Assembly: GCA_026004495.1 (NCBI GenBank)
Contig: BPJG01000001.1
Coordinates: forward strand, 496,527 to 560,526
DNA: 64,000 bases
Direction: 5' to 3'
DNA from: Candidatus Parcubacteria bacterium
Lineage (GTDB): Bacteria > Patescibacteriota > Minisyncoccia > UBA6257 > HR35
The notes beneath the pieces were generated by a model. The model ran no database searches. It worked only from the letters and a program-made list of their open reading frames with translations, and was not told the DNA's origin. The translations under genes and the position numbers were made by a program. Of the stretch, positions 47,924-52,219 are shown piece by piece (the first letter of the stretch is position 1; each line of letters begins with the position of its first letter).

Positions 47924-48007
47924 TTTTAATTTTTATTTATAACTTTTAAGTATCAATAAAGAATAATAATCGACCAGTATATTTTTTTAATATATAAAAT
48001 AAAAAGA

Positions 48008-48030
48008 CCGGCTTTTGTGCCGGCTTCTTT
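48008..48030 (-). terminator. GC hairpin (CCGGC-ttttgt-GCCGG) with flanking A/T runs; best read as a minus-strand intrinsic terminator
   Basis: On the minus strand the hairpin is followed directly by TCTTTTTATTTT. It could stop leftward transcription leaving the foreign trpS island. Confidence 0.4.
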
Positions 48031-48497
48031 AGATATTTTTTAAGATAACTAATTATGCCGGCACTCTTCCGATTCTTAATAATAAATTAATAATTAAAAA
48101 TAAATTCCAATTTTTTATAATCTCACTTTTCATTATTGTGAAAAATTTTAAATTAAAAAAAATTTTTGTCAAGAGTTTTAACTATTAAAGTAAATGTTAA
48201 TAATGATTTTGAATTTTAAACCGACAATGGAAATTAATATTTTCTCTTTTAGGTTATTTATTAATTAAAGTTATTTCATTAAAATTATTTTTTAATATTT
48301 ATATTATTTTTTGTAATTTAATCTTTTCTTTTATTTTATTTTTTAAACCAGTTTTAAAAGGTGAAACTATTGGGATGATTTTAATTGCTTTATTTATGAT
48401 AATTTTTTATTATTTTTTGGGATTTAATTGTTTATCATAATTAAAAAATTTTTTTATGTTTATAAGTTAACATTATTAAAAAAAATTTTTTTTGGAT

Positions 48498-48721
48498 TAA
48501 AATGGCGGTATCTTTTGGACAAAATCCGAACCTATTTTGAACAAAATCCCGATGCCGAAATCTAACCTGTGCGTCCGCCTTCGGCGGACGCACACCCACC
48601 CACCGCCCAAAACGAGCAAGCGGACAAAAATTTCCCCCCAGATTCTCCCTTGTCTGCTAGTTGAATGATTGAATTAAACTTGGCAAAATTTTATTATAAT
48701 AAATATAACAATAATAAAGTT
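48498..48721. repeat. IR1-L: left copy of a 224-bp inverted repeat, about 98% identical to IR1-R
   Basis: Its reverse complement matches 50174-50397 with 3 mismatches by manual alignment. About 50% GC. It contains a perfect palindromic hairpin GTGCGTCCGCC-TTC-GGCGGACGCAC at 48569-48593 and, at its inner end, a truncated copy (MIELNLAKFYYNKYNNNKVVAEKID*) of the N-terminus of the 68-aa HTH ORF. Confidence 0.85.
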
Positions 48722-48905
48722 GTGGCGGAAAAAATAGATTGATAGCGTCTCTCATTCTATAAATTTCAGGTGCAGTATTAAAACATTACCTAAATCAATA
48801 TCATGGAAAAATGGAGCAAAACTTTGTAATTCTTTTGGTATTTTTTGCTTCTTCATGGTTTTTTAAAAAAGAAATGCTGGAGTTGTTGAAATAACCCCAC
48901 CCCGT

Positions 48906-49973
48906 TTAATCGAATCGCAGGACTTTCCTGACTTCGCTAAGGGTTTCGATGGCGTTTTCTCTAGCCACCTTAGCCCCCTCTTCCAGGGCGGAAGAAATGT
49001 ACGACGGGTCGTGCAAAATCTCAGCCCTCTTCTCCTGAAACTCACTGAGGAAGTTCTGAACGATGCGAGTCAGAATTTGTTTAAACTGACCCATTACTGG
49101 TTTGCCACTCTTATGTTCCTGGATAACGGCATCCACCTCATCGCGTTCCGATTGGGTTTTTGCCAGCCCCTTGGCAATTAAGATATGGCTTTCCAGTTTC
49201 TCGTTCATTACTCCCTCAAATGCAGTCTCAGCGGCTTTGATCTTGTTGGCAACCGTCTTTAGGTCATCCGTCAGGAAAATAGCACCGCCAGGATTACTTT
49301 TGCTCATCTTGCCCTTTCCTCTCAGGGCAAGAATACGTAGCGACTTAACCTGCAACACCTGAGGAATTGGAAAAATCTCCCCGTACTTCTTGTTGAACCT
49401 GCGAGCGAGGAGACGCGTAACCTCCATGTGTGCGAGCTGATCTTCTCCCACCGGTACCCTTTTGGCTCTGTTCAACAAGATGTCAGCAGCCATTAGTACC
49501 GGATAAAGAAGAAGGAGGGCATTAGCAGTTTCCGGCCGTGCGTTGTTCTTGAGCTTATCCTTGAGAGTCGGTACTCTCAAGAGTTCAGCCACAGAAACAA
49601 GCCTAGACAGAATCGCGGTAAGCGTTGTTACCTCTCCCGCTATATCCGATTGGAGATAGATCTTCGCTTTCTGCGGATCAACTCCAAGCGCGATGTAGTC
49701 AGCTACGACTCCGTGGATGTACTGCCTCACAGTATCCGGTTCGTTGTCCGTGATCGCGTGCAAATCGGCAACGAACACAACCGGAGACACGCCCTGTGTT
49801 TGAAGTTCAACAATGGGAGCTACTGCCCCCAGGTAGTTGGCGACGGTCAAGTCGCCAGTGGGCCTGATGCCCGTCAGTAACTCAACCTTGTAATCCATGG
49901 TAGACGCCTCCTTTTTTAGGGTACTATCCATACTATAATCCTTTTTCCATTTTTTGCCAAGATCATATGTCAT
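48906..49973 (-). CDS. trpS: Tryptophanyl-tRNA synthetase, compositionally foreign (about 50% GC by eye)
   Basis: Class-I aaRS. TGDLTVANYLGA is a HIGH-region variant typical of TrpRS, and KMSKS is present. The likely true start is the internal MDYK Met near 49898, which has a GGAGG RBS 8 nt upstream, giving about 331 aa. The gene is far more GC-rich than anything around it. Confidence 0.85.
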   Translation of the reverse strand: MTYDLGKKWKKDYSMDSTLKKEASTMDYKVELLTGIRPTGDLTVANYLGAVAPIVELQTQGVSPVVFVADLHAITDNEPDTVRQYIHGVVADYIALGVDPQKAKIYLQSDIAGEVTTLTAILSRLVSVAELLRVPTLKDKLKNNARPETANALLLLYPVLMAADILLNRAKRVPVGEDQLAHMEVTRLLARRFNKKYGEIFPIPQVLQVKSLRILALRGKGKMSKSNPGGAIFLTDDLKTVANKIKAAETAFEGVMNEKLESHILIAKGLAKTQSERDEVDAVIQEHKSGKPVMGQFKQILTRIVQNFLSEFQEKRAEILHDPSYISSALEEGAKVARENAIETLSEVRKVLRFD

Positions 49974-50023
49974 ATCTATTTTTGTTTGATTACACTAATA
50001 ACGACCGTGTCTTTTATGTCTAA

Positions 50024-50230
50024 TTATATTCTAAACGTTGGCCTAAAAGGTTTTAATATACCCTTAACATCATAACATCTCAAAACCATACTGGAAACTC
50101 CGAATATTTTGGATACCTGTTTTATTGTCAGTAATTCTGGGAATCTTTCTGATTCCATAATCGCTTGCTCTAAAACTTTATTATTTTTATATTTATTATA
50201 ATAAAATTTTGCCAAGTTTAATTCAACCAT
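50024..50230 (-). CDS. Excisionase/AlpA-like (MerR-superfamily HTH_17) small DNA-binding protein
   Basis: 68 aa. LTIKQVSKIFGVSSMVLRCYDVKGIL fits the Xis/AlpA HTH. Its first roughly 55 nt lie inside IR1-R, and a truncated inverted copy lies in IR1-L. Confidence 0.5.
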   Translation of the reverse strand: MVELNLAKFYYNKYKNNKVLEQAIMESERFPELLTIKQVSKIFGVSSMVLRCYDVKGILKPFRPTFRI

Positions 50231-50397
50231 TCAACTAGCAGACAAGGGAGAATCTGGGGGGAAATTTTTGTCCGCTTGCTCGTTTTGGGCGGTGGGTGGG
50301 TGTGCGTCCGCCGAAGGCGGACGCATAGGTTAGATTTCGGCATCGGGATTTTATTCAAAAAAGGTTCGGATTTTGTCCAAAAGATACCGCCATTTTA
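50174..50397. repeat. IR1-R: right copy of the 224-bp inverted repeat
   Basis: See IR1-L. Its outer end is ...CCGCCATTTTA, the inverted att-like 11-mer. Confidence 0.85.
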
Positions 50398-50521
50398 CGA
50401 TTTCAGAGCTTTGAGAAGTTCTTGCCTCGCCTTCGCTTCGCTCGGGCTCGGCAAAAGCCACGATTTTATACGGATTTTTGAAATAAAAAAAACAATTTCT
50501 GCCCGCTCAAAAGAAAGTTCG
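50387..50521. repeat. IR2-L: left copy of a 135-bp inverted repeat, about 95% identical to IR2-R
   Basis: Its reverse complement matches 52001-52135. It is GC-rich (CTCGCCTTCGCTTCGCTCGGGCTCGGC). It begins with the same CCGCCATTTTACGATTTC terminus that ends IR1-R, so the two IR systems abut and share 11 nt. Confidence 0.8.
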
Positions 50522-50620
50522 CCGTGCGAAGCACGGGCAAAATAAAATTTTGCAAAACAATCTTTTTTCTCTCGCTTCTGGCGAAAAGCAAAGCGATAAT
50601 TTAATTTTGGTAAAACAAAT

Positions 50621-52056
50621 ATGACAAAAGAAAATTCAAAAAGAAAATTTTTCATTTATGTCCGCAAGTCAACTGACTCAGAAGACAGACAAGTAAGAAG
50701 TATTCAGGACCAAATTGCGGAACTCAAGGAATTGGGGAAAAAAGGAAAATTTAGAAATCGTTGATATTTTGATTGAAAAACAAACCGCTAAAATTCCCGG
50801 AAGGCCAGTTTTTAATGAAATGCTGAAAAGAATTCAATCAGGCGAAGCGTCTGGATCCTGACCGGCTTGCTCGTAATTCTATTGACGACGGGCAAATTAT
50901 TTATCTTTTGGATACCGAAATTATCAAAGAGTTAAAATTTCCTACTTTTTGGTTTGAGAATACGCCACAAGGAAAGTTTATGTTATCTATCGCTTTTGGC
51001 CAATCAAAATACTATATTGATAATCTTTCAGAAAATATCAAAAGGGGACATCGGCAAAAATTAAAACAAGGTTTATGGCCCCAAATGGCGCCTCTTGGTT
51101 ATCTCAACGATACAAAAACAAAACAAATTTATGTTGATAAAGAAAAAGCACCGCTTATTAAAAAGGCGTTTGAACTTTACGCTACTGGAAAATATACCTT
51201 GAAAGAAATTAGAAAAATCATTAACGATTTGGGGTTGCGGGGAAGAAAAAATAAACCTCTTTCAACTTCAAATTGTTAATATCTTTTACAAAATCCTTTT
51301 TATTACGGAGTGATGAGATACAACGGCGAATACTACGAAGGAAGGCACGAACCGATTATTACAAAGAAACTTTTTGATGATGTTCAGGAAGTAATGAAAC
51401 AAAAATCAAAACCGCAAAAACCAGACAAAATGAAATTTTTTCTTTATCGCGGATTATTTCGTTGTGGAGAATGCAGTTATGCCATTACCGCGGACAGAAA
51501 AATCAAAAAGAGCGGGAAACAATACACCTATTACTATTGCACCAAGAAAAACCCAAATCATAAATGCTCGCAAAATGTTTTTACCAGAGAAGAAAAAATT
51601 TTATCCCAAATCAATGAAGTGCTACAAAAAGTTTCTTTATCTAATGATTGGGCTGATTGGATGATAAAAAAACTTGAAAGAGAAAAAGAAGAAAAAGTCC
51701 AATCATCACGCTTTTTTGCTCAAAAGATTGAAAGCGAAATAAAGGAGATTGACGAGAAGTTGGAAAAGTTAATGACTGCCTACCTTGAAAATGCTTTGTC
51801 TTTAGAATAATACCGAGAAACCAAAAATAAACTTATTAATCAAAAACAACTCCTGAAAGATAAACTAATCGCTTTTGAGCAAAAAAGCAATAATCGGTTC
51901 GAACTCGCCATAAAATTCATAAATTCCTTAAAACAAAGCCAGATTATCGCTTTGCAAGAAAATCACGAGCAAAGCCGGGATTTTCTAAAAAAGATTAGTT
52001 CGAACTTTCTTTTGAGCGGGCAGAAATTGTTTTTTTTATTTCAAAAATCCGTATAA
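50621..52056 (+). pseudogene. Large serine recombinase (resolvase domain, recombinase domain, zinc ribbon, coiled coil), disrupted
   Basis: N-terminus MTKENSKRKFFIYVRKSTDSEDRQVRSIQDQ with the catalytic Ser motif. One frameshift in an A6 run near 50738. A second indel near 50850, upstream of DRLARN. Two in-frame TAA stops, at 51277 (...STSNC*YLLQNPFYYG...) and 51808 (...LSLE*YRETKNKL...). CGECSYAITADRK...YYYCTKKN is the zinc ribbon. The last roughly 19 codons lie inside IR2-R. GC is intermediate between host and trpS. Confidence 0.65.
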
Positions 52057-52135
52057 AATCGTGGCTTCTGCCGAGCCCGAGCGAAGCGAGGGCGAGGCAA
52101 TACCTTCTCAAAATCATGAAATCGTAAAATGGCGG
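52001..52135. repeat. IR2-R: right copy of the 135-bp inverted repeat, abutting tRNA-Ser
   Basis: See IR2-L. It ends in TAAAATGGCGG, whose last 6 nt are the CCGCCA 3' end of tRNA-Ser on the minus strand. Confidence 0.8.
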
Positions 52136-52219
52136 AAGGGGTGGGATTCGAACCCACGAGGCCCCAGAAGAGGCCACGGCTCTCCAGGCCGTTCCGTTAA
52201 TCCACTCCGGCACCCTTCC
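52130..52219 (-). tRNA. tRNA-Ser (anticodon GGA) with a long variable arm and encoded CCA
   Basis: Folded by hand. Acceptor GGAAGGG/CCCTTCC, a 3-bp D-stem, anticodon stem ACGGC/GCCGT with loop CTGGAGA, variable arm GGCC-TCTTCTGG-GGCC, T-arm GTGGG-TTCGAAT-CCCAC, discriminator G plus CCA. Confidence 0.85.

Follow-up and report, generated by a model that had tools for sequence, protein, structure and literature searches.

Can two long inverted-repeat pairs that abut each other and share one short core be the trace of a single event? The question is raised by positions 48498–52135 of a 64-kb stretch of DNA from a Candidatus Parcubacteria bacterium (the window, meaning the whole stretch that was analysed), where a tryptophan-tRNA ligase gene (trpS), a serine recombinase gene and a tRNA-Ser gene lie between and beside such repeats. 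A sequence-only reading of the locus had offered two answers, serial integration at the tRNA gene or a cassette that is inverted by the recombinase. We consider it probable that the locus is instead a single small element that brought cargo with it, was integrated by its large serine recombinase (LSR) and has since decayed. Three observations carry this conclusion: the anatomy of the repeats, an open reading frame (ORF) that is restored when the two island ends are joined, and the recurrence of the same layout throughout a family of related elements.

The repeats and their junctions

We located the repeats by repeat finding and aligned them base by base. The first inverted repeat (IR1) pairs 48498–48730 with 50165–50397; 224 of its 233 nt are identical and the longest perfect run is ∼98 nt. 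The 224-nt span that had been read at about 98% identity shows 5 mismatches on realignment, again 98%. The second pair (IR2) joins 50387–50521 to 52001–52135, is 135 bp long as read before and has 127 of 135 nt identical (94%). The 11-mer TAAAATGGCGG has exactly three copies in the 64 kb, at 48498 (+), 50387 (−) and 52125 (+); the expected count is 0.04 and none of 100 shuffles reached three copies. These positions match the earlier description of a core that is direct at the outer ends and inverted at the IR1/IR2 junction. The reported overlap of the third copy with the CCGCCA 3′ end of tRNA-Ser is likewise borne out, with tRNA-Ser(GGA) placed at 52130–52219 (−). Two details did not hold. The CGATTTC extension of the core, said to belong to both repeat families, is present in IR2 only. 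Of the two gene ends thought to be duplicated, the recombinase 3′ end does lie in IR2, but the 5′ end of an excisionase (Xis)-like ORF in IR1 is an artefact, because the longest ORF had been read; homology puts the start at 50158, outside IR1. The repeat features and the tRNA gene are as follows, with a and b for the two arms on either side of the core and primes for the inverted copy.

48498–48508 (+): core copy 1, predicted attL crossover region, an exact 11-mer with host flank to the left and arm a to the right
48498–48730 (+): arm a, left island end (IR1 left), 224/233 to the reverse complement of 50165–50397
50165–50397 (−): arm a′ (IR1 right), inner half of the intact internal repeat copy, from the repeat alignment
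50387–50397 (−): core copy 2, centre of an intact inverted attP-like site (a′-core′-b′) upstream of the recombinase gene
50387–50521 (−): arm b′ (IR2 left), non-coding inverted copy of the recombinase 3′ coding end, 127/135
52001–52135 (+): arm b (IR2 right), recombinase 3′ coding end up to the crossover, from the repeat alignment
52125–52135 (+): core copy 3, predicted attR crossover region; its TGGCGG is read as Trp-Arg of the recombinase and is the reverse complement of CCGCCA at the tRNA 3′ end
52130–52219 (−): tRNA-Ser(GGA), the integration target, intact (ARAGORN; Rfam tRNA model 54.8 bits)

The nature of the two pairs can be seen in intact relatives. In the loci L001 and L002 (recombinases 91–93% identical, 527-aa ORFs), IR2, the core and positions 1–68 of IR1 are contiguous and form the last ∼190 nt of the recombinase ORF. 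An inverted copy of this whole stretch lies upstream of the gene, in L002 over 307 nt with 90% identity, and such an a′-core′-b′ block upstream of the recombinase was observed in L001, L002, L004, L005, L006 and others. Because they are contiguous in unsplit relatives, IR1 and IR2 are halves a and b of one repeat, b-core-a, which in the window has a length of 135 + 233 − 11 = 357 bp. Two repeat families and two events are thus replaced by one inverted repeat of ∼357 bp.

The window holds three junctions of this repeat: host DNA followed by core-a on the left, the whole a′-core′-b′ in the middle and b-core followed by the tRNA on the right. Arm a contains the displaced last 18 recombinase codons and the stop codon (48509–48565). 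When we joined the attR arm (52001–52135) to the attL arm, the product read ...EIVKWRYLLDKIRTYFEQNPDAEI followed by a stop; arm b contributes ...FFYFKNPYKIVASAEPERSEGEAIPSQNHEIVKWR, with KWR directly before the join, and arm a contributes YLLDKIRTYFEQNPDAEI and the stop. The last 18 residues are identical to the tail of P0001, an intact 527-aa relative. The restored ORF end argues for a site-specific insertion with the attachment site attP inside the recombinase's own 3′ end. To judge by their sequence, the outer junctions are attL and attR, and the middle junction is the element's second, untouched repeat copy. The suggestion that the 11-mer is the core of an attachment site fits the three junctions and the restored ORF. 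The identity common to attL, attR and the internal site in relatives is only 3–13 bp, always with a terminal GG or CGG, and across the three junctions it shrinks to CGG or GGCGG. The identity common to the junctions is the indication for the exact point of exchange, and by it the crossover most likely took place at the GG or CGG of TGGCGG.

The arms show some further peculiarities. Six of the eight IR2 mismatches cluster within ∼20 nt beside the core (52090–52124 versus 50398–50432). Family-wide, the stretch that precedes ..WR occurs in a few discrete versions (TIAQNPNSENWR, TLKNAEIVNWR and IPSQNSKIVNWR), and the two b copies of the window carry different ones. On the other side of the core, ATCCGAACC in arm a resembles GATTCGAACC, the antisense of the tRNA T-arm, at a position ∼11 nt further from the core (48498–48545 versus 52125–52172); in the same place L002 has AATTCGAACC and L099 has AGTTCGAAT. 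The half-site on the element side may therefore derive from the half-site of the tRNA or mimic it.

The DNA between the outer 11-mers spans 3.6 kb with a GC content of 0.33–0.52, compared to ∼0.14–0.25 in the flanks and ∼0.22 in the host. Besides this foreign composition the window shows the other marks of a tRNA-targeting island, namely the 11-bp direct repeat at 48498 and 52125, the overlap of the 52125 copy with CCGCCA of tRNA-Ser and a recombinase gene on the tRNA-proximal side. The earlier proposal of an island integrated at the 3′ end of tRNA-Ser agrees with the direct repeat, the CCGCCA overlap and the junction of b-core with the tRNA. The empty site that we reconstructed from the window is a normal tRNA with an AT-rich trailer, and no other part of the 64-kb window resembles the island.

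We propose the following course of events. The free form would consist of the recombinase gene flanked by one pair of long inverted repeats, presumably in a circular intermediate. One repeat copy (b-core-a) would comprise the 3′ end of the gene, the terminator that follows it and the promoter of the cargo; the other (a′-core′-b′) would lie inverted upstream of the gene, and the core inside the repeat would act as attP. Strand exchange, with the recombinase itself as the probable maker of the junction, would have joined the GG or CGG of TGGCGG (Trp-Arg codons near the C-terminus) to the CCGCCA 3′ end of tRNA-Ser. The 3′ copy would have been split by this exchange: arm a with the last 18 codons would have become attL at the far end of the island, arm b would have stayed beside the tRNA as attR and the upstream copy would have come to lie undivided between the two. 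Each arm of the divided copy would then pair with one half of the undivided copy, giving the appearance of two adjacent inverted-repeat pairs with a shared core. After the insertion the recombinase would have been inactivated and most of an ancestral cargo of ∼7 kb lost, with the intact foreign trpS kept. The arrangement would then be the scar of one insertion, and the puzzle that it posed would be removed.

The family in other genomes

The repaired recombinase has thousands of relatives, the best 120 of which are 65–91% identical and come mostly from Patescibacteria (Candidate Phyla Radiation, CPR). Some 7,800 proteins fall below an E-value of 1e-20 and at least 570 genome loci were confirmed. 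The family is common in Patescibacteria and was also found in Omnitrophota, Marinimicrobia, Ignavibacteriota, Planctomycetota and others. For the layout we used a sample of 82 genome loci with relatives 48–93% identical to P0001, including complete genomes and several phyla. The layout recurs among these loci. In 67 loci the sequence reaches far enough downstream to look for a tRNA gene, and in 45 of them a convergent one adjoins the recombinase 3′ end (Ser 20, Ala 12, Asn 8, Gln 2, Leu 1, Val 1, Ile 1). An inverted repeat flanks the recombinase, with the 3′ coding end as its right arm, in 49 of 62 loci, and the median arm identity is 100%. Among 27 loci with 5 kb or more of upstream sequence, 15 have a second repeat pair that abuts the first; the overlap is mostly 3–13 bp and the cargo 1.6–5.2 kb. 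This dual layout was also seen in complete genomes (L006, AP024682.1, and L082, CP055308). All four family features are found in the window: a convergent tRNA, the inverted repeat around the recombinase, the abutting second pair and outer arms that rejoin to the native ORF end.

The family proteins continue after ..NWR either with the native tail or with RGWDSNPR..., which is the antisense translation of the tRNA T-arm. For L001 and L034 we found the tRNA joined to the upstream repeat copy and the recombinase gene left intact, which argues that both copies are recombination-proficient. The loci L099 and L100, from different samples, match at 100% over 3330 nt, up to and including GGCGG; past this point L100 continues into tRNA-Ser and L099 into arm a of a different family member. 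We had considered L099 as an excised circle and rejected this, since its arm a differs from the element's own arms and marks a tandem neighbour. At L006:489–11199 in a complete Parcubacteria genome (AP024682.1), two members are stacked head to tail at one tRNA-Ser; their recombinases are ∼67% identical at the DNA level and each member has its own two repeat pairs. Stacking was observed in L002 and L099 as well. The pair L099/L100 and the stacked L006 and L002 indicate that a resident attR stays a target for newcomers, resulting in tandem arrays with direct junctions of b and a. In viral contigs we found only four relative loci, two of them fragments and two merely 22% identical, and this near-absence argues against a phage integrase family.

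Two kinds of misleading annotation were encountered among the relatives. Four database 'recombinases' (P0023 with 588 aa, P0043, P0048 and P0080) have long C-terminal extensions, one of which includes a nitroreductase domain (PF00881). Rather than real fusions, they seem to be translations that run on past the junction, through antisense tRNA and host genes. At L008:7540–8047 ARAGORN called a tmRNA of 508 nt with the same start base as tRNA-Ser(GGA). This call is almost certainly false and caused by the tRNA.

Decay, cargo and competing explanations

The genes of the window island are listed below.

48731–48905 (−): stub of the next gene after trpS, as known from related cargo blocks, marking an internal cargo deletion; similarity to L083 (76%) and L093 (82%)
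48906–49898 (−): trpS, tryptophan-tRNA ligase, intact, 330 aa, 50% GC, with AGGAGG 8 nt before the ATG
50024–50158 (−): small MerR/BldC/excisionase-like helix-turn-helix (HTH) gene, C-terminally truncated, 44 aa versus 60 aa in L093 (L093 alignment)
50621–52135 (+): large serine recombinase pseudogene; the repaired translation has the domains Resolvase, Recombinase and Zn_ribbon_recom

The repaired recombinase exceeds the gathering cut-offs of PF00239 (5e-15), PF07508 (3e-19) and PF13408 (1e-9) and shares 91% identity with P0001. Its domain order is that of a large serine recombinase, in agreement with the enzyme class named in the sequence-only reading. The gene itself can no longer be expressed as an intact protein, with five inactivating lesions scored against L001 (89% identical DNA): an additional A near 50740, a 14-nt deletion near 50856 with loss of the conserved ILAWH codons, TAA stops in frame at 51277 and 51808 and an additional T near 52044. 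The T-run of the last lesion, TTTTTTTT (TTTTTTG in L001), is present in both b arms, at 52044 and at 50478. Either sequence passed between the b copies once the mutation had arisen, or the mutation is older than the last homogenisation of the two. Because its enzyme is dead the window copy is fixed: it is a fossil with an inactivated recombinase, a partly deleted cargo and an intact trpS.

The trpS product matches PF00579 (8e-56) and the TIGR00233 equivalog with 265 bits (cut-off 177), contains the KMSKS motif and is 100% identical to P0121 from a Candidatus Parcubacteria metagenome-assembled genome. The window cargo (48724–50188) is 82% identical over 1500 nt to the start of L093:1–6972, a contig of 6.97 kb with inverted copies of the inner end of arm a at both ends. 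L093 carries genes for a 60-aa HTH protein, TrpRS (trpS), an oxidoreductase-like protein, a divergent TrpRS-like protein of 377 aa and a TrpD-like protein. Nucleotide similarity to L083 and L093 runs past the trpS stop into the next gene and ends at arm a, and at the position of the stub L093 has ∼5.5 kb more than the window. The window retains trpS, the HTH gene in truncated form and 175 nt of the gene beyond trpS, and its left a arm is shorter at the inner end. These remnants and the shortened arm point to an internal deletion that removed most of an ancestral cargo of ∼7 kb. From L083 and L094 we had taken the HTH-trpS pair for ordinary chromosomal context; this was rejected, as the L093 block is bounded by inverted arm a and is cargo.

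Homology with the 60-aa protein of L093 places the start of the HTH gene at 50158, just outside IR1. On a 68-aa reading it has weak Pfam MerR matches, and the 44-aa form of the window matches none of the profile models. The L093 protein weakly matches BldC, IS607 N-terminal HTH and excisionase models, all below the cut-off; it reaches 22.5 bits on TIGR01764 (cut-off 28.8) and a higher score on BldC. In other members the gene at this position encodes an XRE-type HTH protein of restriction-modification cargo.

The cargo between the a arms varies among family members. In L002, L006, L022, L023, L104 and L109 it consists of restriction-modification or other defence genes headed by an XRE-type HTH gene, in L024:1418–6012 of SerRS, radical-SAM, archaeal-type SAM synthetase and PHP genes, in L028:2491–5829 of CrcB, a DUF190-like gene and enolase, and in L015 and L017 of genes for secreted proteins. 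The TrpRS clade of the window (P0121–P0240; L083, L093–L098) is 75–90% identical over many short contigs of unrelated lineages, binned as Parcubacteria, Falkowbacteria, Thermotogota, a Nitrososphaeria bin and bacterium HR35, and even in L083 the GC content of the gene is above that of its surroundings. This distribution across phyla fits a mobile gene. A resistance-type second synthetase or the replacement of a lost gene could be the reason for its mobility. Laterally transferred TrpRS clusters beside a bacterial-type TrpRS have been described in CPR bacteria (Mukai et al. 2017, PMC5370408). L093 may be a transferred TrpRS-A cluster of this kind, and if so the element family would be the vehicle of those clusters. 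A trpS gene of 88% identity was also observed ∼150 nt downstream of the tRNA 3′ end GTTCGAATCTGCCTACCCCGACCA in L094:1500–1660 and L097:1200–1370, and next comes a partial direct copy of the tRNA end, AATCTGCCTACCCAGACCA; such a pattern marks a different, tRNA-duplicating type of island with the same gene.

Both a arms contain putative expression signals. A strong hairpin at 48568–48594 in arm a, with its T-rich tail facing the core and a counterpart at 50301–50327 in arm a′, would stop transcripts that leave the cargo. At the inner end of arm a a promoter-like TTGAAT-17-TATTAT (48669–48697) points into the cargo, and the site of arm a′ (50226–50198, −) points to the HTH gene and trpS; both are consensus matches only. 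With such a site in each a arm, transcription would enter the cargo from both sides whichever way it lay, which argues against orientation-dependent expression.

This bears on the strongest competing explanation, by which an inversion switch uses the repeats as its substrates: the cargo, the recombinase segment or both would be flipped, by the recombinase or else by homologous recombination, with a change in expression or in the C-terminus of the recombinase as the outcome. We regard it as quite improbable. L001 and L034 show the recombinase segment in the reverse state: the tRNA is upstream and the gene retains its native tail, but integration via the other attP copy explains such loci equally well. 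The cargo genes of L028 face the opposite way. An element identical in more than 10 assemblies (that of P0105) has contigs that enter the same cargo from either end; eight lead from arm a to one end of its ∼9.3-kb defence cargo, two lead to the other end and two stop at the inner end of the arm. These contigs are uninformative: when unique sequence is enclosed by perfect inverted repeats, the assembly graph does not depend on which way that sequence lies. For the same reason we rejected a comparison of L109 with L110 as proof of cargo inversion, both graph paths being valid. For the P0065 element the three spanning contigs agree on a single orientation. Across the family the arms are usually 100% identical, and the additional T in both b arms of the window would fit ongoing exchange between arms; however, in the window the arms have diverged by 2–6% and the recombinase is dead. 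The inward promoter-like sites in both a arms mean that orientation would not gate expression, and the established rules for LSRs forbid exchange of attP with attL or attR. Nor does the locus resemble a Hin/Gin/Cin/Pin-type invertase system, with its large enzyme of ∼527 aa, repeats of 135 and 233 nt and a promoter-like site in both arms. For the window copy, the proposal of a cassette invertible by its serine recombinase is not supported, given the five lesions of the enzyme and the symmetry of the promoter-like sites; live relatives may still invert.

A second explanation assumes that two independent elements arrived at tRNA-Ser in succession, a cassette with trpS between terminal inverted repeats of 233 bp and a unit with the recombinase between such repeats of 135 bp. 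Tandem arrays at one tRNA are indeed real (L006, L002, and L099 compared to L100), and recombinase units or cargo are often found alone on a short contig that ends in the repeats (L003, L093, L117, L118). True tandem arrays, however, give a direct junction of b and a, not an inverted one. The serial integration proposed in the sequence-only reading thus does occur in the family and does not account for the centre of the window. Short contigs of this separate kind are expected from a de Bruijn assembler wherever it meets a perfect inverted repeat. Furthermore, at least 15 loci whose cargo is unrelated have both cargo and recombinase, always in one order, and in unsplit copies a single ORF runs without a break from arm b into arm a. 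The restored ORF largely refutes two insertions, which we hold to be very improbable.

An assembly artefact, that is a foreign contig spliced into the Parcubacteria contig or a fold-back at the repeats, is hardly credible in spite of the sharp GC contrast and the known tendency of inverted repeats to cause misjoins, given non-identical arms (5 and 8 mismatches) with joins backed by distinct sequence, ends that carry the attL/attR junctions expected from the family, the same layout in many independent assemblies including complete genomes, and an identical TrpRS at NCBI on a 634-kb Parcubacteria contig.

A single insertion of an LSR-moved element remains our preferred explanation, and several points weigh against it. 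Among the loci with enough flanking sequence, 13 of 62 have no inverted repeat around the recombinase and 22 of 67 have no adjacent tRNA. LSRs need an accessory protein for excision, the recombination directionality factor (RDF), and none was identified for the element, in which the small HTH protein would be a candidate. Neither a circular form nor an empty site was obtained for the window element. For the empty site, which the sequence-only reading had suggested as a check, a metagenome scan with host flank and core (TTTTTTTTGGATTAAAATGGCGG) returned three unrelated contigs of 51–53% GC, in which the match follows a terminator and is due to chance, and no empty site. Finally, LSRs normally need only ∼50 bp of attP, and integration alone does not explain a repeat of 200–500 bp with a second inverted copy.

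Candidate roles for the second copy are autoregulation at an operator-like attP, alternative integration that spares the gene, flip-flop inversion and cargo exchange by recombination between arms. A bolder idea, which we think unlikely, is that the dumbbell layout of two inverted attP copies, one of them in the 3′ end of the gene, is a working device. The copy used for integration, or a flip, would determine whether the enzyme retains its upstream region and native tail of 18 residues or takes on an antisense-tRNA tail, and the element would sense and control its integrated or free state in this way, perhaps including directionality, without a separate RDF. An intact attP and a targetable attR would then allow stacking and cargo exchange and would make the family a main vehicle of gene flow in CPR bacteria, aminoacyl-tRNA synthetase genes included.

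Some observations concern the surroundings of the island. An Rfam scan of the island had the tRNA as its sole match and showed no T-box before trpS. A 570-nt spacer (47924–48497; 13–15% GC, many low-complexity A/T repeats) separates the island from a FolE2-type GTP cyclohydrolase gene. All genes to the left of the spacer are on the minus strand and all genes to the right of the island on the plus strand; the GC skew around the island tracks gene orientation and provides no usable replication-origin signal.

Significance and comparison with known systems

Very few mobile elements have been characterised in Patescibacteria and the other host groups, and the family described here is widespread and carries genes between ultra-small (CPR) bacteria. 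It is a compact way to move cargo of 1.5–10 kb to tRNA genes, including restriction-modification and other defence genes, TrpRS, SerRS and enolase. It also poses a question on serine integrases, why attP is kept inside the gene and why it is duplicated in inverted form. The numerous closely related enzymes with their conserved tRNA targets may serve as a set of integrases with predictable sites for genome engineering. Full-text literature searches returned no description of the family. The enzyme is a typical LSR and tRNA-targeting islands are ordinary; unusual are the attP inside the recombinase's own coding end and the full inverted copy of the site and its surroundings that is conserved upstream.

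With phiC31, Bxb1, A118, SPbeta and the LSR-bearing tycheposons the family shares a resolvase catalytic domain, a recombinase domain, a zinc ribbon with coiled coil, conservative site-specific integration, a very short common core and an attP beside the recombinase gene. Unlike them, it has attP inside the 3′ coding end, where integration swaps the last 18 residues for an antisense-tRNA tail, and a second complete attP-containing copy inverted upstream. The elements are also only 3–12 kb long, contain no phage, conjugation or replication genes and target tRNA 3′ ends.

The nearest analogue for an attachment site inside the recombinase's own gene are the SSV1-type archaeal integrases (Fuselloviridae), in which attP lies within int, integration into a tRNA gene partitions int and only excision restores it. 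These are tyrosine recombinases whose gene is split into two large fragments, whereas in the present family a serine recombinase exchanges only its C-terminal tail. An inverted second copy is not known from SSV. The yeast 2-micron plasmid (FLP/FRT) likewise has two unique segments between long inverted repeats that contain the recombinase target, as predicted for the free form of the family, and its topology allows flip-flop isomers. FLP, however, is a tyrosine recombinase that acts on two identical sites of a replicating plasmid, whereas for the family a circle is predicted and inversion hypothetical, and LSRs do not normally recombine attP with attP. In Hin, Gin, Cin and Pin systems a serine recombinase gene also lies beside DNA bounded by inverted repeats. 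Their enzymes are small (∼190 aa with a C-terminal HTH), work on 26-bp sites with the help of Fis and an enhancer, and what they invert is a promoter or a set of alternative gene ends; the window repeats differ in that they contain the enzyme's own coding end.

The tycheposons of Prochlorococcus (bioRxiv 10.1101/2020.12.28.424599) are likewise small cargo elements at the tRNA genes of streamlined genomes, with tandem arrays and metabolic or defence cargo. Of these elements 910 of 937 use tyrosine recombinases and many carry replication modules (bioRxiv 10.1101/2020.12.28.424599), and an inverted repeat flanking the recombinase or an attP within its gene is not described for them. They are the closest ecological analogue of the family, with another enzyme and another architecture.

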